DNA of 64,000 bases from an uncultured Acetatifactor sp. (GTDB lineage: Bacteria > Bacillota > Clostridia > Lachnospirales > Lachnospiraceae): contig CANQEH010000013.1 in NCBI GenBank assembly GCA_947594835.1, positions 8,838 to 72,837 of the forward strand, in the 5' to 3' direction. The translations under genes were made by a program, and so were the position numbers. The notes beneath the pieces were generated by a model that was given only the letters and a program-made list of their open reading frames with translations, had not been told where the DNA came from and did not search any database. Positions 15,276 to 57,975 of this stretch are shown here, one piece after another (position 1 is the stretch's first letter; the number at the start of each line of letters is the position of its first letter).

Positions 15276-15318
15276 ATTTTACTGAAAGAATCAGCCGACT
15301 ACTCATACAAAACAAAAG

Positions 15319-15855: not shown

Positions 15856-15989
15856 ACAGTTTCCAGTTTCCCCTGTCCTTTGCCCTCTTTCCTTTATCAT
15901 CGCTTCCCAAAACCTCCCAAACGCCGATTCTGCCAGACCGGTGCCTCCCTGTTTTTGCTTCTCATGATATCACCCCCTGTCAGATAGCG

Positions 15990-16763: not shown

Positions 16764-16871
16764 CCTCCGTCCCTCCTCTCTCCTGCCGAATGGATCAGAG
16801 AGCCGCACAGAATAAGGTTTTGATGCAGCCGTCCAGGTTTTCCGCCAAAAAACATCGGATACAAGATGCAT

Positions 16872-17933: not shown

Positions 17934-18129
17934 CTGCTTCCTTCCGAATCCCGGTGGATTCCACAAACGCATACCTGACGCTCATTATACACCCAAATCA
18001 TGAAAAAAGCTACCGCCGTCCACCCAATGCCCCCCGGCGCCTCTCACACCCCTCCCCCGCCCCTTCCCCTTGCAATTTTTCATCCGGGAGCGTACAATAA
18101 AGGCAAAGAATGCTTCCGGGAGGCATACA

Positions 18130-32800: not shown

Positions 32801-32935
32801 GCTTGCGATGCACTGGCCGCGGTTGACATAATAGCACCAGATGGGGATGCCGTGGAGCCCTGCAAGCCCCGGAAGGAAGCTGGCAAAGGCAGGCTTTTTG
32901 TCATAATCGGTAATGGTAAAGGTCATATCGGACAT
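29828..32935 (-). CDS. 1035-aa uncharacterised (alpha/alpha)6-barrel-type glycoside phosphorylase/hydrolase-like protein, distantly GH94-like
   Basis: FRDVNQNRR, GKPGWYDALNGLPG and ENESIWLHMEYKY occupy positions analogous to the RD..QD, DWND and ENG..FxH segments of GH94-type enzymes. I cannot place it in a named family. Confidence 0.5.
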   Translation of the reverse strand: MSDMTFTITDYDKKPAFASFLPGLAGLHGIPIWCYYVNRGQCIASFGVEDKDHAIMEFFPAQQSYEHTALRGFRTFVRLDGRYLELFTGEDTQKQMTVGPNSLAIQETDAANGLDVRVDYITLPEEKTGALVRKVTLRSKKGAPCTLEVLDGMPVVIPFGVDMGSVKEMGHTSKAWMQAEKLMPGVPYFRVRASMADTACVTAIAGGNYGFACDGTGERLPVVTDPSLVFGYDCSMQKAVGFSRMDYDAFLAAQQVDTNQYPCCFFAAKRTLQPGESLTLYEVIGQVGGRRLLERLLEKRLGPAYFEEKFARAVKLPEELCQVIGTKTADAAFDAYSSYTYMDNVLRGGFPIRLPGDHIFYAYSRKHGDLERDYNYFRMLPEYYSQGNGNFRDVNQNRRCDAFFTPYVGAENIVKFYSLIQLDGYNPLAIEKVTYTLPEEAAEEIFDRFTQEQKEELLGFLGEPFTPGAFFAKLDELGIRDVEEEERYFAQVMGRVHSTVNADFGEGYWSDHWTYNLDLIEAYLKVFPEKEKEILFETPVTFYRSQAAILPRKKRYVKTENGVRQYHFLDEGRKAGGEKLLRDRFGQGEVVEVTVMEKLLLLCAAKYAALDAYGCGVEMEGGKPGWYDALNGLPGLFGSSMAETYELERMVEFVIRELKTYRPDMELLAEVAGFLEQMGEITLHCREDIQKEEELLEFWNLRNDAKEAYWEKTFAGISGARASVDSGRLLELLQAMQETLLAGIRKACAAGKEGICPTYFTYEVKEFAEDGEGIVPLRFEQKNVPLFLEGPVRFFKLEGREEEKRRLYEKIKESDLYDEPLQMYKVNASLAEASIELGRAKAFTPGWLENESIWLHMEYKYLLELLRNGMYEEFFSDFKKAAIPFQDPERYGRSIYENSSFLASSKNPDKSCHGRGFVARLSGSTVEFLSMWVGMMFGELFSWKDGELTLSLTPALPAYLLGEEKRVEAVLLGNTRVIYETAQTRDYFPGNYSVERMELTYRDKSSFQTCQSVLAGETAKAVRDGKIETIYVKLV

Positions 32936-35784: not shown

Positions 35785-37356
35785 TTAGTTTTGTAAATTT
35801 CTGGGGCCCATCTGCCCGGGATCCATCCCGCCGGGAGGCATCTCCCCAGGGCTCATCTCCCCGGGAGGCATCTCTCCTCCCATTCCTCCGGGATTCCTGC
35901 CCCCGGGGCCCATCCTGCCGTCCATGCCGTCTCCATAGATCAGCTGCTCCAACGTGATTTCCTGGGTTGTGTCCCCTGCCGTCAGAGTGTACGTCCGCCC
36001 CTGTTCCAGCTGGGGGCAGCTGACCACCACGCAGTTAAAGGCGCTCTCCGGCAGAAACTGCACCAACACCTCCCCCGTTTCGTCCGCCAGGGAAATCTCC
36101 TCTCCCGCCTGGCAGTCCGAAACCTGAAGCAGGATGGAGCCCTGGGTGGAAGCGTCCCCGAAGTTCATGGCCATCCGGCCATCCCCCGCAGCCGCCAGGA
36201 CGCCCCCTGTGATCTGCCCTGTCCCGCCGTAGTCCAGGGAGGCGTTTGCGCCGTCTTCCGGGCCGGAGACATAGGTTTCGCCCCCGGTGACCGTAAGATC
36301 CCCGTTGGAGTCAATGCCGTCGCCCGCCGCGTGGATCTTTAGCATTCCCCCGGAGATGACGATACTGGCGTCGCTTCCGCCAAAGGCCTCGCCGTTCCCC
36401 GGAAAAGCGCCAAAACCGCTCTGGTCATTTCCGCCTGCCGCGTTTAAGCCGTCGTCCGACACGTTTAAGCGGATCTCCCCGCCGGCGATCTGCACCTGGT
36501 TTCCCTCGATCCCCTCATACCCTTGCGTCACTTCCAGACAGCCGCCCAGCACGGAAGCGGAACCGTCTGCGTGGACGCCGTCGTCCTCCACGCACATCTG
36601 CAGCGTCCCACCGCTTACGGTCACATCCCCTTCACTGTTTATGCCGTCCTTTCCTGCGGTAATCCCGATCTGCCCGCCGCCCACGCGCACGCTGTCCTTT
36701 CCCTCCAGTCCGTGGCCCTTTTGGGCGGTTATTGTAAGGCTGCCGCCTGTGACTGCCAGATCGTCCTTGGTGACGACGCCGTGCCCGTCCTCTGCCGTGA
36801 CGCTTAAGCTGCCGCTGCCGTTTATGGTCAGATCACACTTGGAAAAGATGACGCCGTCGATGTTGTTTTCGTCAATGGCCACATAGCCGCCCCCTGTCAG
36901 GCTGTTTCCGGCGTCCGCTGCCAGCGTCACAAACAGCTTATCCGCGCTCTTTGCGTAAATGGCCGCGCCGCTGTGGTTGGAAATCTCCACTCCGTCCAGC
37001 ACAAGCTGTACCTTGTCCGTGTCCGCAGCTTCCACTACCACCATCCCCTCCAGACTGCCCGAGAGAAGGTAAGTTCCCTCGTCAGTGATGGTGACGGTGT
37101 TTCCTGTCACCGCCACGGAAGACCCGCTGCTTGATGCGCCGTCCCCCGTCAGTGAGATGGCGGTGCACTCCGCCGGGTCATAGCTTCCGCTTAAGTCCCT
37201 GTCCGTAAACAGCTGCGAAACATCCGGCAGGGTCTCCCCCACCGTGCCGTTCGCTGCCAGAGTGTCCGTGGCCAGGGTGTCCGTCCCCTGGGATGTCTGC
37301 TCCCCGCAGGCGGTGAGCGCAAGCGCTGCCGCCGCCAGGAGCGCCGCCTGCCTCAT
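35785..37356 (-). CDS. beta-helix carbohydrate-binding-domain lipoprotein (Cthe_2159 / DUF4353-like) with Pro/Gly/Met-rich tail
   Basis: Trimmed to the ATG giving MRQAALLAAAALALTACGE (lipobox). Repetitive ...VTITDEGTYLLSGSLEGMVVVEA...VQLVLDGVEISNHSGAAIYA... pattern typical of that family as I recall it. The upstream 46 codons of the track ORF are 18-bp repeats. Confidence 0.7.
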   Translation of the reverse strand: MRQAALLAAAALALTACGEQTSQGTDTLATDTLAANGTVGETLPDVSQLFTDRDLSGSYDPAECTAISLTGDGASSSGSSVAVTGNTVTITDEGTYLLSGSLEGMVVVEAADTDKVQLVLDGVEISNHSGAAIYAKSADKLFVTLAADAGNSLTGGGYVAIDENNIDGVIFSKCDLTINGSGSLSVTAEDGHGVVTKDDLAVTGGSLTITAQKGHGLEGKDSVRVGGGQIGITAGKDGINSEGDVTVSGGTLQMCVEDDGVHADGSASVLGGCLEVTQGYEGIEGNQVQIAGGEIRLNVSDDGLNAAGGNDQSGFGAFPGNGEAFGGSDASIVISGGMLKIHAAGDGIDSNGDLTVTGGETYVSGPEDGANASLDYGGTGQITGGVLAAAGDGRMAMNFGDASTQGSILLQVSDCQAGEEISLADETGEVLVQFLPESAFNCVVVSCPQLEQGRTYTLTAGDTTQEITLEQLIYGDGMDGRMGPGGRNPGGMGGEMPPGEMSPGEMPPGGMDPGQMGPRNLQN

Positions 37357-37378
37357 CCTGCCGCTTCCCTTTTTTTGT

Positions 37379-37432
37379 CTTTTGCCGTTTTCCTGTGTTT
37401 TTCCAGTTTCCTGTCTTTTGTCAGTTTCCTTG
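37379..37432. repeat. three tandem 18-bp repeats (CTTTTGCCGTTTTCCTGT / GTTTTTCCAGTTTCCTGT / CTTTTGTCAGTTTCCTTG) plus a degenerate fourth at 37361-37378
   Basis: Read directly; lies just upstream of the lipoprotein start codon. Confidence 0.8.
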
Positions 37433-37560
37433 CTATGTCTGCCCATCGTCTTACCGACCTCCCTGACCGCATCCATGCGCTCTCGCTTTTTCAAAGCCCC
37501 GCTGGTTCTGCGCCTGCTATGCCGTCGCTATACCGTCCGGGACTCGCTATGCCTATCCAA

Positions 37561-37684: not shown

Positions 37685-37770
37685 CAGGCGGTCACAGTTC
37701 GCAGCCTCGATCCCTCTCTGGGTAGGCGTGTTGCCACGCCCGTAGCCGCGCAGGCGGTCACAGTTCGCAG
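37685..37770. repeat. 20-bp exact direct repeat CAGGCGGTCACAGTTCGCAG (37685-37704 and 37751-37770)
   Basis: The second copy contains the last four codons and the stop of the DUF4956 gene. The first copy is a duplicate of that gene end 66 bp downstream. Confidence 0.9.
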
Positions 37771-38459
37771 ACCGCCGTTTCCTGCTGGCAGATGGAGATC
37801 TCCAGATTCCCGTTGCGGCAGCGGAGCTTGTCGATCAACTCCTTCTCCGCCCCGGCGTCCTTCAGCACAATGCTGTAAGTCAGCTTAAACAGGCTTCCCA
37901 GACTGGCAGTCTTTACCTGCTCCAGCGCATGGGAGCTTGTATACTCCTCCAGAATCTGGTCAAAGACGCCGGTGTAGTCCAGATCCTCCGGGATGGTGAT
38001 ATGTAGCGTCTTATGCCGCCTGGCCTGCGCTTTGCCGCCGAAGTCCAGCCGGTTGTACACCATCATCACAAGGCCGAGCAGCACCGCAAACAGCACCCCG
38101 TACCCCAGATAGCCCATGCCGTTTATCAGGCCCGTGCACATGGCCAGAAAAATCGCGCAGATCTCCTTCGCCGTGCCGGGCGCCGACCGGAAACGCACCA
38201 GGCTGAAGGTTCCCGCCACCGCCACCCCGGTGCCGATGTTCCCGTTTACCATCAGGATCACCACACACACCACCGCGGGCAGAAGCGCCAAAGTCAGAAG
38301 AAAGCTCTTGGTGCAGCGGCTCCCGACGGTGTATACGGCGGCAAGGAAAAGCCCCGCCAGCAGGGAGACCGCCAGGCAGAGAAGAAACGCCCCCGGGGAG
38401 ATGGAGGCCGCCGCCTGGGCGTCCGTGTCAAAAATTCCTCGAAACCACCTGTCAAGCAT
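37758..38459 (-). CDS. DUF4956-domain membrane protein (copy 1)
   Basis: Four-to-five TM helices with the conserved FSLVRFRSA segment and a C-terminal soluble domain. The start overlaps the VTC gene stop. Confidence 0.8.
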   Translation of the reverse strand: MLDRWFRGIFDTDAQAAASISPGAFLLCLAVSLLAGLFLAAVYTVGSRCTKSFLLTLALLPAVVCVVILMVNGNIGTGVAVAGTFSLVRFRSAPGTAKEICAIFLAMCTGLINGMGYLGYGVLFAVLLGLVMMVYNRLDFGGKAQARRHKTLHITIPEDLDYTGVFDQILEEYTSSHALEQVKTASLGSLFKLTYSIVLKDAGAEKELIDKLRCRNGNLEISICQQETAVCEL

Positions 38460-39168
38460 ATCTCTTTCCTCCTCTTTCTCTCTCCATCAAAGTGCAGTAA
38501 GCGTTCCCGTATTTGGAAAAGGAAACCTTCTGCAGCCGCTCTTTTGTCAGGATTTCCACCATCCAGAGCGGGATCCCCCCGCAGGTCTTTAACTCCATCA
38601 GGGTGCTCCCCTCCTCCAGCAGGGGTTCCCCGGCTGCCTCCTCCCCCAGGGACAGCCCAGACGCCCGCCAGAGGATGTTTTCGTCAAAGGTCACCCGGAA
38701 GCTCTCCTCCTTTTTGTCAAAGAATGCCTCCCGCTCATAGGAGAGAAAGATCTTCGGCTGAAGCGTCCCGTAAAAGGACACAAAATAATCGATCTCGTCC
38801 GTGATCTGGCTCCGTGCAGGCGCCGGAATCCGGCCTGCCAGATAGTCCTCTGCCTCCGTCTGGCGGATGCCCATACGGCGCTTGTAGACCACCGAGTTGT
38901 ACTTCTTTTTCAGCTCTATAAACACCTGATCCTGCGGGGCGGCCTTTTGATAACTGCGCACCCGCAGCTTTTCCTTGTAGACGGGATGCTCTAAAGACCT
39001 GCGGGCCAGCCGGAAGGTATCCGTGTCGTAATAGATATTGCGGATGGTGCTCCTGCCGAAGCGATCCGGCTCCATGCGCCCCTCCAGCGCCTCCATAATC
39101 TTTTGTTTCTGTGCCCCGTTCAACAGGTACTTGATTTCATACCGTTCAAACACCATCGGCGTATCCAT
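38452..39168 (-). CDS. VTC-domain (polyphosphate-polymerase-like / triphosphate tunnel fold) protein (copy 1)
   Basis: Trimmed to ATG 39168 (CAGGAGG SD). MDTPMVFERYEIKYLL (RxExK[Y/F] strand), RNIYYDT, KLRVRSY, MELK, SFSKY. The alternating charged strands are typical of VTC/CYTH tunnels. Confidence 0.8.
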   Translation of the reverse strand: MDTPMVFERYEIKYLLNGAQKQKIMEALEGRMEPDRFGRSTIRNIYYDTDTFRLARRSLEHPVYKEKLRVRSYQKAAPQDQVFIELKKKYNSVVYKRRMGIRQTEAEDYLAGRIPAPARSQITDEIDYFVSFYGTLQPKIFLSYEREAFFDKKEESFRVTFDENILWRASGLSLGEEAAGEPLLEEGSTLMELKTCGGIPLWMVEILTKERLQKVSFSKYGNAYCTLMERERGGKRYA

Positions 39169-39229
39169 AAAAACCTCCTGAAACCGCGGCAGGCTGCTGC
39201 CGCTTTTTTCTGAGATTATCCTAACACGC

Positions 39230-39249
39230 GAACCTAAAGGGAACCTTAA
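39230..39249. promoter_or_regulatory. direct repeat GAACCTAAA-N2-GAACCTTAA (11-bp spacing) at the -35 position of the VTC operon; candidate OmpR-family response-regulator site
   Basis: On the minus strand it reads TTAAGGTTCccTTTAGGTTC, 17 nt upstream of a GATAAT -10-like hexamer (39215-39220). Confidence 0.35.
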
Positions 39250-39283
39250 CCAGATTGTGAAATAAATGTGTTTTCCTGTCCCC

Positions 39284-39313
39284 TTGAAACCCCCGGGCAT
39301 CCTATGCTAGAAT
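39284..39313 (+). promoter_or_regulatory. sigma-A-type promoter TTGAAA-18 nt-TGcTAGAAT for the two-component operon
   Basis: Hexamers at 39284-39289 and 39308-39313. Confidence 0.5.
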
Positions 39314-39361: not shown

Positions 39362-40039
39362 ATGCGGCTTTTGATTGCGGATGACGACCAGGATATCCTC
39401 AAGGTGCTGACGGCGCTGTTTGAGCGCAGCCACTACAGCACGGACGTGGTCTCCAACGGAAACGACGCTTACGATTACGCATCAGGCGGGAATTACGACG
39501 GTGTGATCCTGGATGTGATGATGCCCGGCATGGACGGCCTGGAAGTGCTTCGGAAATTAAGGGCGGCCGGGGTGAAGACGCCGGTGCTTTTGCTCACCGC
39601 CAAAGGGGAAGTGGAAGACAGGGTAAGCGGCCTGGACGCCGGGGCAGACGATTATCTGCCAAAGCCCTTTGCGGCTTCCGAGCTGCTGGCCCGGGTCAGG
39701 GCCATGCTCCGCAGGCGGGATCAGTACCGGGGGGACGTCCTCTCCTTTGAGGGTCTGACCCTGGATCTTGCCACTTTTGAGCTGGGATTCGGCGGCAGGC
39801 GCATCCGCCTGGTCAGCCGGGAGTTCCAGATGCTGGAGCTTTTGATGCAGTCCCCCGGCGCCCTGGTGTCCACAGAACAGTTCATGGAGCGCATCTGGGG
39901 ATGGGACTGCGAGGTGGAGCCAAGCATCGTCTGGGTCTACCTCTCTAATCTGCGGAAAAAGATAGAAAACCTGGGCGCGCCTGTGGGCATCCGGGCGGTC
40001 CGGGGCGTGGGCTACTGCCTGGAAAGGAGCGCGTCATGA
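39362..40039 (+). CDS. OmpR/PhoB-family response regulator
   Basis: MRLLIADDDQDILKVL...DVMMPGMDG...LTAKG, and a winged-helix end VRGVGYCLE. Confidence 0.93.
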   Translation: MRLLIADDDQDILKVLTALFERSHYSTDVVSNGNDAYDYASGGNYDGVILDVMMPGMDGLEVLRKLRAAGVKTPVLLLTAKGEVEDRVSGLDAGADDYLPKPFAASELLARVRAMLRRRDQYRGDVLSFEGLTLDLATFELGFGGRRIRLVSREFQMLELLMQSPGALVSTEQFMERIWGWDCEVEPSIVWVYLSNLRKKIENLGAPVGIRAVRGVGYCLERSAS

Positions 40040-41352
40040 TACCGAAGCTTCGCAGGAAATTTATCTCCATCACTGCCTGCACCCTCTTTGCCGTCCTCGT
40101 GCTGGTGGTGGGCTCCATCAACGGTATTTTCTTTTTTCAAAACACCCGCCTCCTCTCCTCCCATCTGGACGGGCTGCTTGCGGAATACGGCTCCGTCCCA
40201 AGGCCCCCCGCCGGCCTGCCGGGAGAAAAGCCTGGCCCCGCCGCGCCGAAAGAGCCCGGCCAGGCCCCCGAAGACTTCCATCTGCTGCCCCGTTTCGAGG
40301 ATCGCCTGAAAGTGCGCCCCGACGGCTGCGTGCTCTTAATGGCGTCAGACGGCTCCATCGCCGACATCCGTCAGGATAACGCAGGCCGGTATTCCCGGGA
40401 GGAGCTGGAAGCGGTGGCGGACGCTGTCCTGTCCAAAGGACGAAGCGAAGGGTGGCAGAAATATTACAAATTCCGGGTGGTCGCCGTGCAGACGCCGGAG
40501 GGGGAGTCCCAGACCCTCATCGGCCTGGTAAACGGCTCCTCCGCCCTTTACGCAGTGTTTAACGCGCTCACCGTTTCGGCCCTGATCGGCGCCCTCTGCT
40601 TTCTCCTGATCCTGTCCGTCCTGATCGTGGCCTCCGGCCGGGCGGTGCGGCCCATCGCAGAGAGCTACGCAAAGCAGAAGCAGTTTGTGACGGATGCGGG
40701 CCATGAACTCAAGACCCCTCTCACCGTCCTCTCCGCCGACAACGAACTGGCGCGGATGACCTTCGGGGACAGCGAATGGTTTGACAACATCGACAAGCAG
40801 GTGGCGCGGATGGACGGCCTGGTACGCAGCCTGATCACCCTGGCCAAAATGGATGAGGGGCAAAAGCCCGTATTCACCCGGTTTTCCTTAAGCGACGCCG
40901 CCTTCGACACCGCCAGATCCTTTGAACACTTAAGCCGCGCCAAAGGCCGGGAGCTTGCGTTAGACATTTCCGATGGGATCTTTTGCCTGGGAGACGAGTC
41001 CAGAATCCGGCAGATGATTTCTATTTTGATGGACAATGCCGTGAAATATTGCGACACAGAGGGGAAGATTTCTGTCAGCCTGCACGCCGGGAGAGGGATA
41101 CGGCTTCAGATTACCAACGATTATGCAAAGGCTTCGGAATTTGAGCCGGAAAAAGTATTTGAACGGTTTTACCGGGCAGACAAGGCCCGCACGGAACCCG
41201 GCAGTTACGGGCTTGGCCTGTCCATCGCCAGATCCATTGCCAGACAGCACAGGGGAGAGATCCGCGCAAAAGCCCTGGAGGGCTGCCGGGTGCGCTTTGA
41301 AGTGACCCTGCCCCTCACCCGGCCTGGGGACGCTGTCTCTGACCGTCGATGA
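40036..41352 (+). CDS. sensor histidine kinase (two TM, HisKA + HATPase_c)
   Basis: H-box FVTDAGHELKTPLTV, N-box ILMDNAVKY, G-box GSYGLGLSIARSIA. The start overlaps the RR stop. Confidence 0.92.
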   Translation: MIPKLRRKFISITACTLFAVLVLVVGSINGIFFFQNTRLLSSHLDGLLAEYGSVPRPPAGLPGEKPGPAAPKEPGQAPEDFHLLPRFEDRLKVRPDGCVLLMASDGSIADIRQDNAGRYSREELEAVADAVLSKGRSEGWQKYYKFRVVAVQTPEGESQTLIGLVNGSSALYAVFNALTVSALIGALCFLLILSVLIVASGRAVRPIAESYAKQKQFVTDAGHELKTPLTVLSADNELARMTFGDSEWFDNIDKQVARMDGLVRSLITLAKMDEGQKPVFTRFSLSDAAFDTARSFEHLSRAKGRELALDISDGIFCLGDESRIRQMISILMDNAVKYCDTEGKISVSLHAGRGIRLQITNDYAKASEFEPEKVFERFYRADKARTEPGSYGLGLSIARSIARQHRGEIRAKALEGCRVRFEVTLPLTRPGDAVSDRR

Positions 41353-47168: not shown

Positions 47169-48026
47169 TCAGTTGCCCACGCTGTTTCGATAGCCGTCCT
47201 TTAAGGCCTGGATGATCCGGTCTGCCTCCTCGTCATACTTTGACCGTTCCACGCCGCCCCGCCGCTCCCGCCTGCCGTACAAAAGGAGGTATTCCGGCTG
47301 CTTTTCCCACTCCTGTGTGAGCTTTTCCATCTCTTTTTCCAGCTCCAGGGCCTGCTCGTAATTTGCCGTCTGTTCCGCCGCAAAAGCGATATACTCCCCT
47401 TCCGTCAGCGTCATCCTCTTTGCCGCCAGATAGTCCCGGTAACAGCCCGGATCCCGGTCGGTCTGGCAGGCTTTGAAAAAGCACTCCGCCGCCCGCTCAT
47501 AGAGCATCAGGCCCGTCAGGGCCACCCCCTTGTTGTGCAGGATGGCACCAAGGCAGCCTGCCGCCGGCAGCGGCTCCCCCTTCTCCTCCGCCTCCCGCCA
47601 TTGCTCCAACAGCGCGTCGTACTCTCTGACCGCAGCCAGATATTTTTTGTTTCTGACCAGAAAGTCCACCTGGCTCTTTCTGCGCTCGATCCGGCTTAAG
47701 CCTGCCCCCTGCTTTAAGACCTGCTCCACCTCTTTCACCACGGGCTCCGGGTACATTCCCACATATCCCATGATGGTGCTCACAAAGGCGCTCAGGGAGC
47801 CCTGCCTGTGCACCAGAGGAGACAGCGCACGGGCCAGTTCCTTCAACCCGCACTCCCGCTCCATCCATCCCAGCAGCCCGTCGCTCATAAGCGACGCATC
47901 CAGCAGGAACGCATTTTCTTTCAGGCAGTAGCACAATTCCTCCATACAGTACACATTGATCTCAAGCCCCGGCACACAGTACGGCAATTTCGCATAATTT
48001 CCCACACAGACACTGACCCGCATCAT
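47169..48026 (-). CDS. hypothetical cytoplasmic protein, helical/TPR-like C-terminal half
   Basis: 285 aa. The start overlaps the upstream stop (ATGA). No recognisable catalytic motif. Confidence 0.7.
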   Translation of the reverse strand: MMRVSVCVGNYAKLPYCVPGLEINVYCMEELCYCLKENAFLLDASLMSDGLLGWMERECGLKELARALSPLVHRQGSLSAFVSTIMGYVGMYPEPVVKEVEQVLKQGAGLSRIERRKSQVDFLVRNKKYLAAVREYDALLEQWREAEEKGEPLPAAGCLGAILHNKGVALTGLMLYERAAECFFKACQTDRDPGCYRDYLAAKRMTLTEGEYIAFAAEQTANYEQALELEKEMEKLTQEWEKQPEYLLLYGRRERRGGVERSKYDEEADRIIQALKDGYRNSVGN

Positions 48027-49315
48027 GATACCCCTTCATACAATTCAATCCGTTCCTTCCAGACCCGTCTGGAAGAAGGGCGGAACTCCCCAAAGCCCAG
48101 GTCTTTGACTTCCACCGCCAGCACATTCTCCGCCTCCAGGTAAAAGTGCACCCGCACGCGCCCAATGTCCCCCGGGAAGCCCTCCAGGCTGATCCTGGCC
48201 TCTTTGCCGCATTTCCCGATGAGGGGCGTCACCCGCACTGTGATCTCACTGCCGTCCTGTACATAAAACTCTGCGGTGTGATCCGCCTCATACCAGTTGA
48301 TCCCTGCGTCCAGGGCCGCGTAATAGGACGCCTCCCCCTGCCGGAACACCTGCATCCCGATGTTTGCCTTTAACCTGTCGTTTCCCAAAAAGACGTGCGC
48401 CTTTCCCGCCGGGCTGGGATTTAACCGCTCCTGCATCCCATAGCAGGCCCCTTTCCCAAACAGGTTGTTGCCCTGGAAGACCCTGCGTCCCCTGCACAAA
48501 AATTTTAGGGAATCCTTCATCCACTCCTGTGAAAAGCCGTCCCCAATGAGGTAGACGCTCTCCACGTTCTCCCCCATCTCACTCTCCGCCAGGCGCAGGA
48601 AAGCGGCGTCCAGCTCCTGGGAGCGCTTCTGCCTTGCCCCAGGCTCCTGGGGCAGCGGCTCCCATGCGTAGAAAGGATGGGCCGTCTCACGGATAAAGGC
48701 CGCCACCGGCGTAGTCCGGCGGTTGCACTCCATCTGATATGCCCGCATACAATTTCCCCGGTAATCAAACAGCATGGAGCTTCTTGCCCAAAGCTCCCGG
48801 GGCTGGCGCAGCATATAATTGTAATAGCTCTCCGTGTGGCTCTGAAAGAACACCTTGTCCGTTTTTAAGTGGACGGCCGCCACCATCTGGTTCAGCACTT
48901 CCAGCACCCTGCCGTCCACCATCTCGCAGGTAATCATCAGCGCGCCGATGCGCTCCGTGGAAGCCGCCTGGCTCAAAAGCCCCAGACTCCTGCGGAAAAA
49001 CAGCGCTAACAGCGCCGCCGGCTCATAGCTCTCCCCCTCGATGAACACGGTTTCCCCGTCCAGGGCCTGCCCAAACAGGTTTTCTATCAGGATCCCCTGG
49101 TTTTCCTCCGCATAGCGCAGCGCTTCCTTGCCGTAAAACCACTGGTTTGCTCCCGGCCTTTTGCAGAGCACCGCAGGGATATTGTATTCCTGCGCCCCGG
49201 CCACCTGGGAGACGGTCTCCACTTCCCCGCTGTCGGAAAAGGCATAGCTGATCTGGCAGGTTTCATTGCCAAGGTCATATCCCACAATCAGTTTTTCACC
49301 GCCAAACAATGCCAT
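48023..49315 (-). CDS. hypothetical protein with Hsp70/actin (ASKHA)-fold-like N-terminus and a beta-rich C-terminal domain
   Basis: LIVGYDLGNETCQISY resembles the phosphate-1 DxG strand of Hsp70/actin ATPases. VYLIGDGFS resembles the adenosine motif. I recall similar Firmicute proteins carrying a DUF5716-type label but cannot verify that. Confidence 0.65.
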   Translation of the reverse strand: MALFGGEKLIVGYDLGNETCQISYAFSDSGEVETVSQVAGAQEYNIPAVLCKRPGANQWFYGKEALRYAEENQGILIENLFGQALDGETVFIEGESYEPAALLALFFRRSLGLLSQAASTERIGALMITCEMVDGRVLEVLNQMVAAVHLKTDKVFFQSHTESYYNYMLRQPRELWARSSMLFDYRGNCMRAYQMECNRRTTPVAAFIRETAHPFYAWEPLPQEPGARQKRSQELDAAFLRLAESEMGENVESVYLIGDGFSQEWMKDSLKFLCRGRRVFQGNNLFGKGACYGMQERLNPSPAGKAHVFLGNDRLKANIGMQVFRQGEASYYAALDAGINWYEADHTAEFYVQDGSEITVRVTPLIGKCGKEARISLEGFPGDIGRVRVHFYLEAENVLAVEVKDLGFGEFRPSSRRVWKERIELYEGVS

Positions 49316-49330
49316 GTGTCTTCTCTCCCG

Positions 49331-52300
49331 CTATTTTAACCGAAACAGATGCCCGTTTAAAAAGTCCTTCCGATAGTATTCCTCCAGCAGGTTGTCCATG
49401 GTGTCCATATCCTGCATGGAGCGGCTGATCACAATGTCGTTGATCAGCTGGAAACGGCTCTCCTGCCCGTCCATGCGGATATCGTTCTTCTGCCGGGAGC
49501 CGCTCTCCGTCAGCTGTGGCTCCTGCCCGTCCATCTCCTCTGTGATGTAATACTGTAAGGTCTCCCCGAAGAAAAGGATAAACTCCTTAAAACATACCCC
49601 GCCGTACACCTCCCGCATATACTCGGAGGTATACTCCTTCGCACCGCCGTCCCCGCTCTCAATCACATAGTGGATGCAGGCCCTGCTGCCGGGTGCGGCC
49701 CGGTATTCGATCAGCGTCTTGTCCGCCAGCTCCTGCTGTACCTGGGGCAGCCTGCTGTACGCCTGAAAGAAAGACAGGTGGATCCCCTCCGCCAGAAACT
49801 CCAGCAGGAAGTCTTCCGCCAGGCGCTGCGCCTCCTCCCCAAGGATCCCCTGATTTTCGGAACAATACTTTACAAAGGCCAGCTTGCAGACCCTCTGGAC
49901 AGGCTCCCCCCGCAGGTACATATTCTGGATCTCCTGAAACACTTCCTGTTCTGTGAGCCGCTCCTTGACAAAGTAACCATAGGCGCACTGTGCTAAAAAC
50001 GCCTCCTCCACCTCCGCCTTCGCCCCCTGGGACAAATAGTAGCGGAAGATATCCATCTTTTCCCCCACAAAGGCGCCGGTGTAAAGCATCTGCACCAGAA
50101 TCCTCTCGCTTAACTTGTAACAGTCCACGCCAAAAGAGCGGGCCGCTTTCCAGACGTCCCTCAGCCCCTTGATCCTCCCCCGGTCATACATGGCCAGATA
50201 CGCAAGCACCACGCCGTCGTACTTCCCCCGCTGGAACGCATGAACCGCCGCCGCCGTCAGCATCGGATCTTCCATCATATGATTTTTTTCCATCATGGGG
50301 CTGATCAGGCGCACCAGCACCTTGGGATCCACAAAATAGGGGCCGTAAGTGTCCAGCCACTGCCTGGCCAGCTGGTGCTGCCCCCGCATGACCATGTACT
50401 GGATCACGCTGCCCCGCTCCTCCACGGTCAGCTCCTCTGCCGGAATCCGTCCCAGAAACCCGTCCAGGGAACGCATATCGTCGGCCTCGTAATAGCAGTG
50501 CATCACCTTTAGGTACAACTCCCGCCTGAGAGCCTGCGAGGCACAGCCCGAAGCCAGCACCCGCAGGCCCCGGTCGATGCGCTCCCTCAGACTCTCCTGT
50601 TCCTCCCGTCCGGCGCCGCACAGATAGATATCAAGCGCCGGGCTCTGCTCCAGATAAGGCAGCAGAAGCCGCAGATAGTGTCCCGGGCGCATCAGCTTTT
50701 CCAGGGTATACTCTGCCGTGGGGATAAAACGATTGCCCCAGGCGTCCTCCAGCACAATGGTATATTCGCTGCCGTACAGCGCCACCCAGGCCTGGCAGTC
50801 CCCCAGCGCATATTCCGCAGGCTGCAGATTCCCGGGCTGGTACACATATACCTTTTTCAGCCTCTCGTCCTCCACCTGAATGAGATGGGCAAACAAAAGC
50901 CTGGAGAGGGGCCCGCAGGTATCCTTATTGATCATGCCGGGCTGCAGCAGCTTGTTGTACAGATCCGCCAGAGGCCGGTTGATATGCTCCCTGCGGATCT
51001 GATCCAGCACGAAATACTCCATCCTGGGCCGGTAAGCTTCCGCGATCTCCCCCAGCTTCTCCCCCTGTTGTAAGATATAATCGTACAGATAAGCCGTGTG
51101 CTCATAGTCCAGATTGTTCTGATAAGAAAAATACATCAGGACAGTCCTGGGGATTTCCTGGGGAACCTTCAGATCCAGGGACATCATATAGTACTCAAAC
51201 AGATTGGTGATGCGGAGTCTTTCGCCCACACCGGCCTGATACCAGGGAAAATACTGCTTCCCCGCCCTGCCGCCTTTGATGAGCAGGGTACAGATCTCCT
51301 GCAAAATCCGCACATCACCCTTTTTCCGATACAGCGCAGCCAGAATCCGAAACAGCGCCGGAGTAAACTCCCGCACCTTTCCCGCCAGATACAGGATCTG
51401 CTCTGTCACCTCCTGACGGATCAGCTCCTGTTTTGCCGCATACCAGAGAATCTGCTGTTCAAACCTTCCCAGCTTGCGCAAAAGCGCCGGGTTGCTGTGA
51501 AGCAGCGCGATGGCCTCGATATAGAGGATGGGACTGGTGCATCCCGTGTCAAACTGCCGCTCTAAGAACACCCATTTCCCCGCCGCCGACTTCTGGTAAT
51601 CCCGGGACAGGTACAGAAGCAGCCAGGCTGCCCGCCAGTTGGCGTCGTCCTGGCGGTAGATCTGTTCCACCTGGGCCGTCACCCGGTTCACATACTCCTC
51701 CTCCGGGTGGATCAATGTGGTTAAGTACAGATAATAAGCCGTCAACGCCTCGTCCGCATTTTTATCCCGCTCCAAAAGCTCCGCCACATGATCCAGAATC
51801 CAGCCGGCCTCGTGATACCGCTCCTCTGTGATGAGCATCTGGGCCTGCAGAAGCCGGGCGCCCGCATCGTTTTCATTCCTGTCCACCAGGCGCTCCACCA
51901 AAGCCCCCGACTCCTTCAGCCAGACGGCGGTGCTGATCTTTTTGGCGCGGAACGCCAGATAGAGGCGCATCAGCTGTACCTGGGCCCGCTTCCGCGAAAG
52001 GGCAGTCTTCCTCTGGCCGTTTCCGTCCCCGCACTGTACCGTCACCGGGATGACCAGGGACACATAACAATTGTACAGGCGGATTTCTCCGAAATTCCGG
52101 CCCTTCCGGCATCCGGCCCCATCGATAAAGACCGGCAGCCTGCAGCGGTTTCCCAAAAAATCGTCGTCAGTGATGAGCTCTTTCTCCGCAAACAAAAAGC
52201 TGCCGTTTAACTCCACGGAGAGCTGAGTAAATCCCCAGCCGTTGCGCACAATGCCGATCTCCCGCTCCGCCACGTCCCCCGGGCCGAATTCCGGCCCAAA

Positions 52301-52909
52301 CTCCAGGGCCATCTGGTCTTCCTCCAGCAGATATTCCACCTTCTGCTTTTTGTTGGCCTGGATCAGAAATTCCTCCACCTGCTGTTCCGATCCGGCATAG
52401 ACGGACAGGGCCCGGTAGGCCTCCGCATACTGGGTATCCCTGCCGGAAAAAATCCCCGCAAACCGCGGCGAGTAAAACAACTTCACCGCCTCCGCCCAGT
52501 CGGTTTTTGCCAGATTGGCAAAATGGAACAGATTTTTGATCACCCCCACGGAAGAATCCAGCGTGTCGTACTCTACGGTGGCCACAAAGGGCAGATAATA
52601 TTCCCCCTGATTGCTGATCACGGAAAAATTTCCCTTTACCACGTCGCCTTCCTCCAGGTGTTCCCCGTGGAAGCAGTAGAAAATCTCCTCCTGAGACCCC
52701 ACAAACTCTGCAGTCAGACATTCCATGCGAAGATCCGAAGACAGCACCGTGCCGTTTGCATAGACTCCCTGGGGCGCATAGAGGAAGAAAGATCCCTCGC
52801 ACTGCTCCCCCCGTTTCAGCGTGATTTCTATTTTTGAACAGGAGAAATCCAGGGATCCGTTTTCATAACAAAAATCCCCCTCCAGAATCTGATCAATGAC
52901 CTGTCCCAT
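49331..52909 (-). CDS. 1192-aa hypothetical protein: two N-terminal beta-sandwich-like modules, ~800 aa of helical repeats, C-terminal beta module
   Basis: Trimmed to the ATG at 52909 (GAGGAGAAGCGGGAGAG upstream). No signal peptide or TM helix. I recall DUF5717-type labels on similar Lachnospiraceae proteins but cannot verify that. Confidence 0.7.
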   Translation of the reverse strand: MGQVIDQILEGDFCYENGSLDFSCSKIEITLKRGEQCEGSFFLYAPQGVYANGTVLSSDLRMECLTAEFVGSQEEIFYCFHGEHLEEGDVVKGNFSVISNQGEYYLPFVATVEYDTLDSSVGVIKNLFHFANLAKTDWAEAVKLFYSPRFAGIFSGRDTQYAEAYRALSVYAGSEQQVEEFLIQANKKQKVEYLLEEDQMALEFGPEFGPGDVAEREIGIVRNGWGFTQLSVELNGSFLFAEKELITDDDFLGNRCRLPVFIDGAGCRKGRNFGEIRLYNCYVSLVIPVTVQCGDGNGQRKTALSRKRAQVQLMRLYLAFRAKKISTAVWLKESGALVERLVDRNENDAGARLLQAQMLITEERYHEAGWILDHVAELLERDKNADEALTAYYLYLTTLIHPEEEYVNRVTAQVEQIYRQDDANWRAAWLLLYLSRDYQKSAAGKWVFLERQFDTGCTSPILYIEAIALLHSNPALLRKLGRFEQQILWYAAKQELIRQEVTEQILYLAGKVREFTPALFRILAALYRKKGDVRILQEICTLLIKGGRAGKQYFPWYQAGVGERLRITNLFEYYMMSLDLKVPQEIPRTVLMYFSYQNNLDYEHTAYLYDYILQQGEKLGEIAEAYRPRMEYFVLDQIRREHINRPLADLYNKLLQPGMINKDTCGPLSRLLFAHLIQVEDERLKKVYVYQPGNLQPAEYALGDCQAWVALYGSEYTIVLEDAWGNRFIPTAEYTLEKLMRPGHYLRLLLPYLEQSPALDIYLCGAGREEQESLRERIDRGLRVLASGCASQALRRELYLKVMHCYYEADDMRSLDGFLGRIPAEELTVEERGSVIQYMVMRGQHQLARQWLDTYGPYFVDPKVLVRLISPMMEKNHMMEDPMLTAAAVHAFQRGKYDGVVLAYLAMYDRGRIKGLRDVWKAARSFGVDCYKLSERILVQMLYTGAFVGEKMDIFRYYLSQGAKAEVEEAFLAQCAYGYFVKERLTEQEVFQEIQNMYLRGEPVQRVCKLAFVKYCSENQGILGEEAQRLAEDFLLEFLAEGIHLSFFQAYSRLPQVQQELADKTLIEYRAAPGSRACIHYVIESGDGGAKEYTSEYMREVYGGVCFKEFILFFGETLQYYITEEMDGQEPQLTESGSRQKNDIRMDGQESRFQLINDIVISRSMQDMDTMDNLLEEYYRKDFLNGHLFRLK

Positions 52910-52965
52910 TCCCACTCTCCCGCTTCTCCTCTGTACCATTCATGACCCGTCCAGGCTTCTATTCC

Positions 52966-54414: not shown

Positions 54415-54422
54415 AGTAAAAT

Positions 54423-54447
54423 GGGCATCCTTCTTAAGAGGATGCCC
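54423..54447. terminator. hairpin GGGCATCCT-N-AGGATGCCC between convergent genes
   Basis: 9-bp perfect stem between the sleC stop (54414) and the DUF4956 stop (54474). Confidence 0.55.
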
Positions 54448-54473
54448 ACTTGATTAGAAATTCCTGCTTTCAC

Positions 54474-55148
54474 TCAGTACACCGCCTCACCGGTGTGTGC
54501 CATAACTGTGACAGAGATAACGCCTTCAACCTCATTTAACTCACTCAGCAAAGATTCGTAATCCTTTATACGTATCTCCATCAAAAAATCTACATTTTCT
54601 TTGGTCAGGTTTCTGGACTTGACAGTATAATGTCTATCATACTTTTCTACCACTTGATACACACGAGGCGCACACGCATTGCTCTTTGCGTTCACCACAA
54701 GCAACATGGACTTTCTTAATTCTGGAAAACGGTAGAAAACCAGTACAAGCACTGTTGCCCCCAGAGACAGCGCCAATGCCAATCCAGGCATTCCGGCACC
54801 ACATATGATTCCCACACTGATACTCCAAAACATGAAAATTAAATCCAGCGGATTCTTTACCGCAGTCCGAAAACGCACAATGGACAATGCACCCACCATA
54901 CCCAAAGACACTACCACACTGCTCTGAATCGCCAAGATGATTGCCGCTGTGATCACGCACATCAGAATCAAGGAAACATTAAAACCCTTGGAATAAAATG
55001 TATTGACAGTAACGACCCGATACACAAAGAAAAGATAAATTCCCAACAGTCCTGCCACAAGTAACAAAAGCGTCACTTCTTTCATGGACAAGCTGGTATT
55101 CTGAAATCCTTGCAAAAACGATTTTTTAATGACATCCTGAATGCTCAT
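54474..55148 (-). CDS. DUF4956-domain membrane protein (copy 2)
   Basis: Trimmed to ATG 55148 (AAGGAG SD). LSIVRFRTA segment and the same TM + soluble-tail layout as copy 1. Confidence 0.8.
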   Translation of the reverse strand: MSIQDVIKKSFLQGFQNTSLSMKEVTLLLLVAGLLGIYLFFVYRVVTVNTFYSKGFNVSLILMCVITAAIILAIQSSVVVSLGMVGALSIVRFRTAVKNPLDLIFMFWSISVGIICGAGMPGLALALSLGATVLVLVFYRFPELRKSMLLVVNAKSNACAPRVYQVVEKYDRHYTVKSRNLTKENVDFLMEIRIKDYESLLSELNEVEGVISVTVMAHTGEAVY

Positions 55149-55159
55149 TTTCGACTCCT

Positions 55160-55855
55160 TTACGTCATTGCGTATTTTCTGCACAGCACATATTTTGAAA
55201 AACTCGTACGGCTCATCTGCTGTCCGGCGGCCAGCAATTCTACAATAAAACTGGGCAGAATCTCATCAAATTTCACTTCCAGAAGCTGTTCCCCCATCAA
55301 AAAGATTCCTCTCCGCTCAATGGTCGGCTCCAAAAAGTGCTCTGTGCCAAATCCAGAACAAATATTTCGGTCAAAGGTAATTCTTACATTTCCAATATTG
55401 AATAGATATGGCGTCCGGGTATATTCTACCATAACTTTGGGTGTGAACAATTCCGTTCTTTGTTCCAGCAAAAACCTTTTCAAAAGTTCCTGCCCATCCT
55501 TTACATCCGAAACAGGCTTACCTTTGATCAGGCTCTCGCACTGATGCTTTGAAATTCTGCAGATTTCCTTTGCCTTCATTCCGCGAACGGAATGCTTGCA
55601 TTCCAGCTTTATCATTTCCGGGCATCCGTCATAGATACGTATGCGATATTTTTTCCGATTGTCTGTCCCATCCATCCCCTCTTGGAAACAGCAGTCATCA
55701 TATGTGTCAAAATACAGGCTCCGAATCTCGTAATTACCCTCTGGCCCCACATAGGGATCTAACCTGCACAGATGACGTATCTTATTCTCCATAAGCATAA
55801 GACTGTTTTCGTCACAAATAAATTTCCATTCATGTCGATAGCGCAGCGTTTCCAT
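55160..55855 (-). CDS. VTC-domain (polyphosphate-polymerase-like tunnel fold) protein (copy 2)
   Basis: YRHEWKFIC (RxExKF), RSLYFDT, KKYRIRIY, LLEVKFD and SFSKY are the same strand signatures as copy 1. Confidence 0.8.
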   Translation of the reverse strand: METLRYRHEWKFICDENSLMLMENKIRHLCRLDPYVGPEGNYEIRSLYFDTYDDCCFQEGMDGTDNRKKYRIRIYDGCPEMIKLECKHSVRGMKAKEICRISKHQCESLIKGKPVSDVKDGQELLKRFLLEQRTELFTPKVMVEYTRTPYLFNIGNVRITFDRNICSGFGTEHFLEPTIERRGIFLMGEQLLEVKFDEILPSFIVELLAAGQQMSRTSFSKYVLCRKYAMT

Positions 55856-55871
55856 CCTCTTTGTTTTCTCC

Positions 55872-57908
55872 TTAAGGCGTATCGGTACTTTCTGCTTCTG
55901 CCTGCTCCTGCATCATCTCCAGCCGATCGGCAAACTGGCGTATGATTTCCGAATCGACCTGTGAAGCCTCTTGTCCAGACATTGCAAGACCATTCTGCAA
56001 TAAAACATCCATTTCAATCCATTCTGATCGATAAACAGCATTTTCCAATATTGGGAGCCTGCTGTTAAATAACGCATTGCTTTCCACATTTCTCCACCCC
56101 GAAAAAATCGCAGCGTAGGTTGTAATCACAGGGGCATTTTCAAGATATTCTCCTTTTTTTACATTGTATTTTTCATAAACATTTCCTTGATAGTCCAAAA
56201 ATGTAATGGTACAATACTCTTCGCCATCCAGCCAGACATCTTCCAGATATTCTGCTTTCTGCTTCAGAAAATTGATGAGAGCATCTCTGCTTGTATCAAA
56301 ATCAGAATAATAGCCATATACACCAGGCCAGCGTATACCATCCATTTCAGCCGATTCCTTTACCACAGCGCTCGTCCGATAAATATCTGCTCCGGCCAAA
56401 TACTTAGCATAAGGCAGATATAGCTGTTGAAACTGGTCGTAAACCTGGTCTCGTACCTCCTGATATTGCATCATTTCCTGTACATAAATGCCGAAATTTC
56501 CCAACTGTCTGGGATCATCCAGCCAAAATTTCTTCGCTCCATAGCTTCCCATAGTTCTGTCATAATCCCACATAGGCCCGGAATAGATATGAGTATCTAT
56601 ACTATCACAATCCTTATAAAAATACATACTGTTTGAGACAACGTCCGGATTATGAAACATTTCTTCCATCAAATATTTTTGGATCCAGGAATCCACGTCC
56701 AGATATTCCGAAAAATGTCTGCCGGTCCCAGGATGAATTCCATCCTCCTGATGAAATGCCAGTTCCAGTTCATTAAACTGGCCACATATATACTGGGCCT
56801 GTTCTACCGTAGCAGGATTGGGGCTGACAATCTGATAGCAATTTCCACCTTCTGTCATAAACGCATTTGTTTCGTCTTCATAGATATGTGCGGGGATATG
56901 CCTCACTAAATATCCACCTGTGATATCTTTCGGATTAACCAGTCCGCTCGTTGCCTTTATTTTCCCATCCTCAGATACATACAGGGCCGCAGTATCGTAT
57001 GTATCTTGTCCGTTAATTTTTTCTGTGGCTTCCTCCAAATTTGTAATATTTAAACGTTTGTCAGATATCTCAATTTTTTCACACAAATAATAATTGCCAA
57101 CATAATCTCCATTTAAATACAGATCCACAAATCTTCCCTGAATAGACGGTACTTCCGTATAGTTTTCTGCAAAGCGAAATATTATGTCGTTCTTTATCAG
57201 GGAATCATCCAGCATATCGGCAAGCAAAATCCATTTTTCTGCCAAAGGCATATCTAAAAGCCCATATCCCTTTTCCAGCTTGATCTGATAGGACTTCTTT
57301 TCCATTTCGTAGAAAGAAGAACTGCCACGCGCCTTGATATATTCAAGTTGTCCGCAATATTCATTGTTTCCGTCTATTCCAATTAAGGCTACAGATGCCG
57401 GCTCTTTCACTTCTTTGTCTGCATGGATTCTTTCCATGCTCCCAGATGCAGTCTCAATAAAAAGGGCTGGGATTTCTGCGGACTCCAAAAAAACAATTTG
57501 TCCGGATTCCGGATCCGTGCCTTCCTGTCCAGAATAAAATTCTAATTCATACGTTTTGGAATATTCCAGATGTTCGATCACAGCATTCGAAGCCGTAAAA
57601 ATTTCCGCATCCAAGCGAACTGATGAACCTTCACCCAAATTACAGAACCTGACCTCCCAGTGATCAGAGCCTGTAGGCAGGAAAAAATAAAATACCCCCC
57701 CGTCTCCCTGCCAGATATGCAGTTTCTGAGTCCCCCCCGGAAACCCAACACTTACCTCCAATTGAGTACAAGTTTCTGCCGGAATGGAATCGACGCCATA
57801 CTTTCTGCTTGACCAGAAAAGAAAAACTGACATTGCAGCAGCCAAAGCAGCTGCACAAAGCAGAGAAGACACGATCACTGAACGTCTTTGTGACATATTC
57901 CTATCCAA
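55872..57908 (-). CDS. membrane-anchored CotH kinase family protein
   Basis: N-terminal TM helix VIVSSLLCAAALAAAMSVFLFW. CotH-type core (VDLYLNGDYVGNYYLCEKIE, GPMWDYDRTMG). The start may be the TTG at 57908 or the ATG at 57896. Confidence 0.8.
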   Translation of the reverse strand: MDRNMSQRRSVIVSSLLCAAALAAAMSVFLFWSSRKYGVDSIPAETCTQLEVSVGFPGGTQKLHIWQGDGGVFYFFLPTGSDHWEVRFCNLGEGSSVRLDAEIFTASNAVIEHLEYSKTYELEFYSGQEGTDPESGQIVFLESAEIPALFIETASGSMERIHADKEVKEPASVALIGIDGNNEYCGQLEYIKARGSSSFYEMEKKSYQIKLEKGYGLLDMPLAEKWILLADMLDDSLIKNDIIFRFAENYTEVPSIQGRFVDLYLNGDYVGNYYLCEKIEISDKRLNITNLEEATEKINGQDTYDTAALYVSEDGKIKATSGLVNPKDITGGYLVRHIPAHIYEDETNAFMTEGGNCYQIVSPNPATVEQAQYICGQFNELELAFHQEDGIHPGTGRHFSEYLDVDSWIQKYLMEEMFHNPDVVSNSMYFYKDCDSIDTHIYSGPMWDYDRTMGSYGAKKFWLDDPRQLGNFGIYVQEMMQYQEVRDQVYDQFQQLYLPYAKYLAGADIYRTSAVVKESAEMDGIRWPGVYGYYSDFDTSRDALINFLKQKAEYLEDVWLDGEEYCTITFLDYQGNVYEKYNVKKGEYLENAPVITTYAAIFSGWRNVESNALFNSRLPILENAVYRSEWIEMDVLLQNGLAMSGQEASQVDSEIIRQFADRLEMMQEQAEAESTDTP

Positions 57909-57946
57909 CTCTTTACCTGCTTCCTTTCGTTTTTAATGTCTATGAG

Positions 57947-57975
57947 AGAATAACATACTTCAATGGAAAAGTCAA
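57947..57975 (-). promoter_or_regulatory. sigma-A-type promoter TTGACT-17 nt-TATTCT for the cotH-VTC-DUF4956 operon
   Basis: The reverse complement of 57970-57975 is TTGACT. The reverse complement of 57947-57952 is TATTCT. Confidence 0.45.

Follow-up and report, generated by a model that had tools for sequence, protein, structure and literature searches.

The window analyzed here is a 64,000-nucleotide stretch from an uncultured Acetatifactor sp. (Lachnospiraceae; assembly GCA_947594835.1, contig CANQEH010000013.1, positions 8,838 to 72,837 of the forward strand). Three of its genes form one operon encoding a conserved cell-envelope module, which is composed of a CotH-like protein, a VTC-domain protein and a DUF4956 membrane protein. 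Very likely, all three products work jointly on the envelope. The best single account, to which we assign a probability of roughly 0.4, is that the VTC protein would synthesize polyphosphate (polyP), DUF4956 would carry it across the membrane and CotH would use it in phosphorylation of the cell surface. The trio itself is already known, and what is new here is a minimal stand-alone copy, with no pelDEADAFG gene and no DUF4832 hydrolase among the Pfam-scanned open reading frames (ORFs) of 7.4-59.7 kb (1-7.4 kb, 47169..49315 and the region beyond 59.8 kb lie outside the scan).

The operon and its three products

The genes for CotH, VTC and DUF4956 are consecutive and co-oriented on the minus strand in the ORF list, and the intergenic gaps of 16 and 11 nt contain GGAG and AGGAG ribosome-binding sites. 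A first-pass annotation, made from the sequence alone, had proposed this operon with products of 678, 231 and 224 aa and gaps of 11-16 nt, and the ORFs, Pfam matches and gaps agree with it. The probable start of CotH is ATG 57896, four codons past the TTG, because the methionine at position 5 is nearly invariant in an 18-sequence alignment; the protein would then have 674 aa. The 224-aa length of DUF4956 is the length called on four metagenome contigs with an identical operon. The TTGACT-17-TATTCT promoter proposed for the operon is present and carries a TG extension, but a scan of the window limited to sigma-70–type sites gave 12 matches against 7.6±2.5 in shuffled sequences, which is no enrichment as a whole, so it is position that supports the promoter. 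The hairpin described as shared with sleC does lie between both stops but reaches a terminator score on the minus strand only. No riboswitch or leader was matched by Rfam (E≤1, 53-59 kb), and no NCBIfam model matches the CotH, VTC or DUF4956 protein.

The CotH-like protein scores 94.5 bits against Pfam PF08757 (cutoff 23.8 bits), with residues 191-555 covering model positions 1-322. Searches of PDB sequences gave no match by single-sequence phmmer and none with a full-length CotH profile, and a diversified profile of the CotH core reached 5JD9; the sequence identity to Bacillus CotH is 14-16%. In the AlphaFold model (predicted local distance difference test [pLDDT] 85), the best PDB fold match of the core is Bacillus cereus CotH 5JDA (Foldseek E=3e-13; TM-score 0.70 normalised to the target). 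In the profile alignment to 5JD9, the EKKSY lysines, D422 and D448 (of W447-D-Y-D450) align with B. cereus EKKSY, D224 and D247, and given the 23-residue spacing of the two aspartates, D422 and D448 correspond to Bacillus subtilis D228 and D251, the catalytic Asp and the metal-binding Asp. The D228Q and D251A alleles of B. subtilis CotH are published as inactive (PMC7821199). The lysine motif and both aspartates of Bacillus CotH are therefore kept. All 97 CotH relatives have K204, D448 and D450, and 84 of them have D422.

The N-terminal membrane anchor suggested by the first-pass annotation was recovered both by hydropathy, which detects a single hydrophobic segment (residues 11-29) after R3, R8 and R9, and by the AlphaFold model, in which one long helix precedes the folded domains. 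An N-terminal hydrophobic segment is found in 95 of the 97 relatives, and both exceptions are truncated ORFs. Beyond the kinase-fold core, residues ~565-632 match the InlB B-repeat 2Y5P, weakly by E-value (Foldseek E=0.024, TMt 0.80, probability 1.00); CotH relatives carry a B-repeat–type module as Pfam Flg_new_2, and the B-repeat is a surface-protein module. The Arg-rich N terminus, the single transmembrane (TM) segment and the B-repeat–type domain point to a type II membrane-anchored, outward-facing protein. Taken with its active site residues, these features suggest that the CotH-like protein is an enzyme of the CotH fold that is competent for catalysis and exposed on the outer side of the membrane.

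The VTC protein matches Pfam PF09359 with 118.8 bits over model positions 2-232 of 235. Hydropathy detects no TM segment in its 231 residues, and neither an SPX domain nor any other Pfam domain is found, as for a soluble protein. Single-sequence phmmer gave no match in the PDB, and a 28-sequence VTC profile matches the catalytic domain of Vtc4 (3G3Q) at E=1e-11. Ten residues (R7, K11, R71, R73, E85, K87, E193, K195, S220 and K221) are invariant in the 28 bacterial sequences and align, in order, with Vtc4 R196, K200, R264, R266, E279, K281, E426, K428, S457 and K458. A role for K200 was reportedly described in the 2009 paper on the Vtc4 structure. The triple substitution R264A/R266A/E426N gives the catalytically impaired Vtc4 mutant used for cryo-EM (PMC9911596). 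The VTC protein is thus predicted to be a triphosphate-tunnel enzyme, soluble and cytoplasmic, in which the residues needed by Vtc4 to polymerise phosphate from ATP are conserved.

DUF4956 scores 35 bits against Pfam PF16316 (cutoff 30.6 bits) and contains four hydrophobic TM segments by hydropathy. Its model, built with low-diversity database homologues (pLDDT 75), shows five helices in residues 22-140, one of which is the amphipathic, nearly invariant GALSIVRFRT helix, followed by a beta-alpha-beta-beta-alpha-beta domain whose ACT-like region comprises residues 148-219. This C-terminal domain matches ACT domains (Foldseek, 3IBW, E=4e-4), and the model suggests a four-TM protein with a cytoplasmic ACT-like domain. 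A sequence profile of DUF4956 found no relative among solved structures. At least 8000 candidate DUF4956 relatives were scored, all of them significant, and the top 120 matches have 70-86% identity. The motif G-A-L-S-I-V-R-F-R-T-A-x-K (DUF4956 residues 86-98, window 54729-55085) is invariant or nearly so in both deeply diverged paralogues, that is, in this protein and in the DUF4956 of another pair in the window. The basic patch of the GALSIVRFRT helix, within the membrane region, is a candidate polyanion-contact site.

Table 1. Features of the operon and related loci. Positions are those of the window, except for the loci of relatives.
Feature	Position	Strand	Remarks
CotH-like gene	55872..57908	-	678 aa from TTG 57908; Pfam CotH PF08757 E=1e-26
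CotH signal-anchor helix, residues 11-31, VIVSSLLCAAALAAAMSVFLF	57816..57878	-	preceded by R3, R8, R9
CotH kinase-fold core, residues 191-555	56244..57338	-	K204/K205 (EKKSY), D422, D448 of WDYD
CotH Ig-like / InlB B-repeat-like domain, residues ~565-632, then helical tail	56013..56216	-	Foldseek
VTC-domain gene	55160..55855	-	231 aa; Pfam VTC PF09359 E=4e-34
DUF4956 gene	54474..55148	-	224 aa from ATG 55148; Pfam PF16316 E=1e-8
Promoter-like TTGACT-17-TATTCT with TG extension	57975..57947	-	9/12 consensus positions; ~40-50 nt upstream of CotH start
Hairpin, 13-bp stem (6 GC pairs), 7-nt loop, T-rich tail	54419..54451	-	between convergent DUF4956 and sleC stops
VTC gene of the first pair	38452..39300	-	
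DUF4956 gene of the first pair	37758..38459	-	
Syntenic locus of relative L084	5101-12767		
Syntenic locus of relative L085	10001-11947		
Syntenic locus of relative L087	113-2146		

Conservation of the trio and proposed mechanism

The gene neighborhood was examined from both sides, and the triad is conserved. The VTC-side survey comprised 40 metagenome loci in which VTC is flanked by 3.2 kb or more on either side; DUF4956 is adjacent at 39 of these and CotH at 34 (30 by a clade hidden Markov model and four more by Pfam), and Cthe_2159 stands in place of CotH at two (L152 and L155). The CotH-side scan, limited to one genome per species, yielded 79 CotH-centred loci, 26 of which have VTC and/or DUF4956 beside CotH, including every close relative with a full-length match and a contig continuing past the gene. 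VTC-DUF4956 is seldom found without a neighbouring CotH, whereas many CotH genes stand by themselves; this asymmetry suggests that the pair is there to serve CotH and not the other way round. The trio is found in either gene order and in contexts unrelated to each other. CotH is commonly present as tandem paralogues, of which a single VTC-DUF4956 pair can have up to three, and one pair may serve several of them.

By calling this module the second of its kind, the first-pass annotation implied a first one, which is present at 37758..39300. This first pair is a deeply diverged paralogue (20-22% identity) with a host-like GC content at third codon positions (GC3) of 0.70-0.80, and an OmpR-type response regulator and a histidine kinase (39362..41352) are encoded divergently to it. 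It is followed by a secreted Cthe_2159 protein (beta-helix, carbohydrate-binding; 35785..37494) instead of CotH. Because this pair and the loci L152 and L155 all join Cthe_2159 to VTC-DUF4956, two or more extracytoplasmic proteins, CotH and Cthe_2159 among them, are alternative partners of the pair.

Plasmids also carry the trio. On the Pseudobutyrivibrio xylanivorans plasmid pNP95 (RefSeq), CotH, polyphosphate polymerase and DUF4956 lie in this order amid an exopolysaccharide cluster with GT2, GT4, acyltransferase and pyruvyl transferase genes, and a Planococcus maritimus plasmid has the order VTC-DUF4956-CotH-hypothetical-HEAT-glycosyltransferase. At a further locus (L091, 3774-11413), two whole trios stand in tandem with opposite gene orders, VTC-DUF4956-CotH and then CotH-VTC-DUF4956, directly downstream of NeuB, polysaccharide deacetylase and BacA (undecaprenyl-diphosphatase) genes. 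Three human faecal virome contigs labelled 'UNVERIFIED Bacteriophage sp.' (L178, L179 and L180, respectively MT837266, MT838813 and MT836222) carry VTC-DUF4956, one of them also CotH; they are probably bacterial carry-over and were not taken as phage carriage.

In the mechanism that we favor, VTC would bind to DUF4956 on the cytoplasmic side of the membrane, where it would make polyphosphate or another phosphoanhydride from ATP. DUF4956 would take the role of the transmembrane channel of yeast VTC, in which the exit tunnel of the TTM domain feeds the channel (PMC9911596), and would pass or present the product to the outer face. CotH, with no ATP pool outside the cell, would then use the exported product to phosphorylate a surface polymer. 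Since loci for polysaccharide synthesis are a recurrent setting of the trio, a protein is a less likely target than an exopolysaccharide or wall glycopolymer. As far as sequence can tell, the idea of polyP export coupled to ecto-phosphorylation, already put forward in the first-pass annotation, is reasonable and fits the anatomy of the three proteins; it withstood the checks that were run, chief among them the conservation of the triad, whose absence elsewhere had been named as a refutation.

The individual step in which polyP itself is the donor is doubtful. If the pair does export polyP and CotH uses it, this would explain how a kinase works where there is no ATP. A wider reading makes VTC-DUF4956 the bacterial counterpart of VTC and a third polyP route beside PPK1 and PPK2, exporting polyP that CotH uses instead of ATP on surface glycans or proteins, with one donor pump and variable CotH paralogues; we consider it unlikely. 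Reviews credit bacterial polyphosphate synthesis to PPK1 and PPK2 (PMC10657179). Judged by its sequence, a Vtc4-like polymerase with all catalytic residues appears to be widespread in gut Firmicutes, and its gene nearly always accompanies those for a small membrane protein and for a kinase-fold enzyme that faces outward. If true, the mechanism would add a new chemical modification of bacterial surfaces and biofilm polymers and would assign a role to two large families that are uncharacterised. The minimal three-gene version, with no attached polysaccharide operon, is a convenient construct for heterologous tests.

Several points weigh against this mechanism. The topologies of CotH and DUF4956 come from hydropathy and models only, and the membrane part of DUF4956 has no likeness to the yeast VTC channel or any solved structure that Foldseek could detect. 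In the literature searched, no activity (polyP synthesis, export, phosphodonor or substrate) has been published for any bacterial member. Two thirds of the CotH relatives lack VTC-DUF4956 within 10 kb, and in close relatives the same site is occupied by a lone CotH, and thus CotH has no strict need of an adjacent pair; supply in trans is possible for a CotH of this kind, since the present genome holds a second VTC-DUF4956 pair. Polysaccharide-synthesis genes were not found next to this copy in the window. Finally, in Streptococcus intermedius, deletion of the CotH homologue gave less Pel and deletion of the DUF4956 homologue more Pel, either deletion reduced aggregation in artificial sputum medium to less than half, and the VTC deletion strain still aggregated, with no aggregation phenotype reported (PMC12345266). 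The effects of the CotH and DUF4956 deletions on Pel and aggregation speak for the envelope module, but the opposite Pel shifts and the behavior of the VTC deletion fit a regulatory role at least as well as channelling.

In such a regulatory or homeostatic coupling, VTC-DUF4956, with an MgtC-like membrane domain and an ACT sensor, would tune cytoplasmic polyP, phosphate or cations, CotH would separately phosphorylate envelope or polysaccharide-secretion proteins with released ATP, and co-expression would tune exopolymer output. Besides the S. intermedius phenotypes, the many CotH genes with no VTC-DUF4956 nearby speak for this explanation, as do the ACT-like domain, which suggests ligand sensing, and the MgtC family, which is tied to ATP-synthase and phosphate regulation (PMC12345266). 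Nevertheless, every polymerase residue is kept in VTC, bacteria already own PPK enzymes for cytoplasmic polyP, and the near-obligate presence of CotH beside VTC-DUF4956 (34/40) would be difficult to account for if no direct functional tie existed. We regard regulatory coupling as rather unlikely.

A function in the spore would make CotH a coat or cortex kinase of this spore-former, acting from the mother cell in the outer forespore membrane, with VTC-DUF4956 feeding a phosphate donor to the intermembrane space. CotH does belong to the Bacillus spore-coat kinase family (PMC7821199), and the operon adjoins a sleC-like gene, an adjacency kept in several relatives; however, the two stops are convergent and the adjacency is confined to one clade. 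The trio is also found in non-sporulating Streptococcus and Bifidobacterium (10.1101/768473) and on the Planococcus plasmid. The membrane anchor and outward topology of CotH argue against a spore-coat location, and no promoter-like match other than one of the sigma-70 type was found by the scan, which covered that type. Bacillus CotH, at ~360 aa, is shorter than the window CotH and, to our knowledge, has no membrane anchor. On balance, a spore function is improbable.

Base composition and origin of the locus

The first-pass annotation had described the operon as much more AT-rich than both neighbours, which holds for GC and GC3 alike. GC is 0.38-0.46 over 54.5-58.0 kb versus 0.55-0.61 on both sides, and the GC3 values of CotH, VTC and DUF4956 are 0.395, 0.478 and 0.484 versus 0.768±0.031 (minimum 0.703) in 29 other window genes, with z scores of -9 to -12. 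From this composition it had also suggested acquisition. The composition is indeed strongly foreign, but a simple acquisition is not what the relatives show, as they share the site and the nearest of them shares the low-GC CotH.

The operon is flanked by a sleC-like gene (PG_binding_1 and SpoIID-like matches) and a mannitol-dehydrogenase-family gene. The order mannitol-dehydrogenase-family gene, CotH (1-3 copies), VTC, DUF4956, sleC-like gene and DUF5717 recurs in Lachnospiraceae/Acetatifactor metagenome-assembled genomes (L005, L006, L007 and L084), and CotH alone occupies the syntenic site in two other relatives (L085/86 and L087). The site is thus copy-number-variable, ranging from a single CotH to a set of three CotH paralogues with VTC and DUF4956 interspersed among them. 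Identity to the relatives is 74-82% for the flanking proteins and 73-84% for DUF4956, and only 50-55% for CotH and VTC. In most relatives, the GC of the module is near that of the flanks or modestly lower; in the nearest one, L087 (SleC 81.5% and CotH 66% identity), the GC3 of CotH is 0.43 versus 0.68-0.73 in its neighbours. At the boundaries of the operon, no tRNA, no flanking direct or inverted repeats and no mobility genes were found, and a mobile island was rejected on these grounds; a defence island was rejected as PADLOC gave no defence-system match.

The locus is therefore a variable locus at a conserved site and not a fresh insertion, and exchange by recombination in the flanks fits better than a one-off insertion. 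The conserved site, the variable CotH copy number, the fast-evolving exposed CotH and the persistently low GC together resemble the pattern of a diversifying, exchangeable surface locus. Such a pattern is known from O-antigen and capsule loci, to which this locus may be compared. That the AT-richness reflects only a mobile or defence island, recently inserted by horizontal transfer into this genome alone, has little probability: the extreme GC3 z scores and another AT-rich accessory island at 6.5-18 kb, which has a transposase-like gene, would agree with it, but the relatives hold the same genes at the same site, L087 shares the low-GC CotH, marks of mobility or defence are absent at the operon, and recombinational replacement at a conserved, diversifying surface locus fits better. 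The rapid evolution and tandem paralogues of CotH, together with its surface anchor and Ig-like/B-repeat domain, might also describe a non-catalytic surface adhesin, as proposed for the CotH invasins of Mucorales, whose link to VTC-DUF4956 would be incidental; this is very improbable given the retention of K204, D448 and D450 in every relative and of D422 in 84/97, and a linkage to VTC-DUF4956 far above incidental.

Other parts of the window were also noted. The larger AT-rich stretch at 6500-18000 has a GC of 0.39-0.47 and a GC3 of 0.35-0.54 for most genes. It contains an ABC sugar-type transporter and flavodoxin-like/SCP2, PadR, PDDEXK_2 transposase-like, GNAT, methyltransferase and alpha/beta hydrolase genes, and is probably an accessory island unrelated to the CotH operon. 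A DUF5717 (1202 aa)/DUF5716_C gene pair at 47169-52939, by the sleC-like gene, is kept in all syntenic relatives (L084-L087) and is often accompanied by a GntR regulator and an ABC ATPase. The ORF at 29828-32935 (1035 aa) matches no Pfam family; it is flanked by GH30 and GH94-like genes in a sugar-utilisation cluster with its own AraC-type two-component system and ABC transporter.

Comparison with known systems

The first-pass annotation knew of no characterised example of such a module, but the trio had already been described. Genes for CotH, a polyP polymerase, DUF4956 and DUF4832 are contiguous with pelDEADAFG in streptococci, clostridia and bifidobacteria (Whitfield et al., 10.1101/768473), a similar trio is part of Clostridium perfringens NELoc-2 (PMC2879425), and deletion phenotypes come from the S. 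intermedius study (PMC12345266). The S. intermedius genes SIR_1594/SIR_1593/SIR_1592 likewise place the three families contiguously in one operon, and their products also include a secreted or anchored CotH with an extra Ig/FN3-type domain and a DUF4956 with four TM segments and an ACT domain. Contrary to the statement by the authors of the S. intermedius study that the trio was not found outside Pel loci (PMC12345266), the trio does occur outside them, both at the surveyed loci and in this window. The window copy differs from the Pel-associated cluster in that it consists of three stand-alone genes, flanked by the sleC-like and mannitol-dehydrogenase-family genes.

In C. perfringens NELoc-2 (CP4_0463-0465), genes for VTC, a small membrane protein and CotH cluster with those for a HEAT-repeat protein and a glycosyltransferase (PMC2879425). 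The small membrane protein is annotated 'tubulin/FtsZ', and its size, position and membrane prediction suggest that it is equivalent to DUF4956. The P. maritimus plasmid has the same layout. In both, the order is VTC-DUF4956-CotH and the cluster goes on to encode a HEAT-repeat protein and a GT2-type synthase, neither of which is present here.

Eukaryotic VTC, composed of the Vtc4 TTM polymerase and the Vtc1/3/4 channel, has the same catalytic family with tunnel residues that are kept here, and both systems tie the polymerase genetically to a small multi-pass membrane protein. Unlike eukaryotic VTC, the window VTC protein lacks an SPX domain and a fused DUF202-type TM region; the partner is the separate, unrelated DUF4956, which gave no match to the VTC chains, and coupling to translocation is suggested by analogy. 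DUF4956 shares with MgtC/SapB/YhiD the architecture of a small multi-helix membrane domain followed by a C-terminal ACT-like domain, and its domain has been called MgtC-like (PMC12345266). A 71%-identical DUF4956 relative is named 'YhiD' in one source. Any relation to MgtC/SapB/YhiD is tentative, and no Pfam match linked DUF4956 to MgtC even at E≤10.

CotH has been described as a distant relative of Fam20C (PMC7821199). Fam20-type kinases likewise have a kinase fold and act outside the cytosol; unlike the window CotH, they are eukaryotic and Golgi-lumenal and are supplied with imported ATP. Some Fam20 members phosphorylate glycans, and we know of no VTC-type partner for these kinases. No cotB/cotG-type SKR-repeat substrates are encoded near the window CotH. 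The Bacillus CotH spore-coat Ser/Thr kinase (5JD9/5JDA) has the same fold and shares the lysine motif and both aspartates. Compared to it, the window CotH is almost twice as long, with a membrane anchor and a beta domain added at the N terminus and a B-repeat at the C terminus, and its predicted location is outside the cytoplasm, where little ATP is available.

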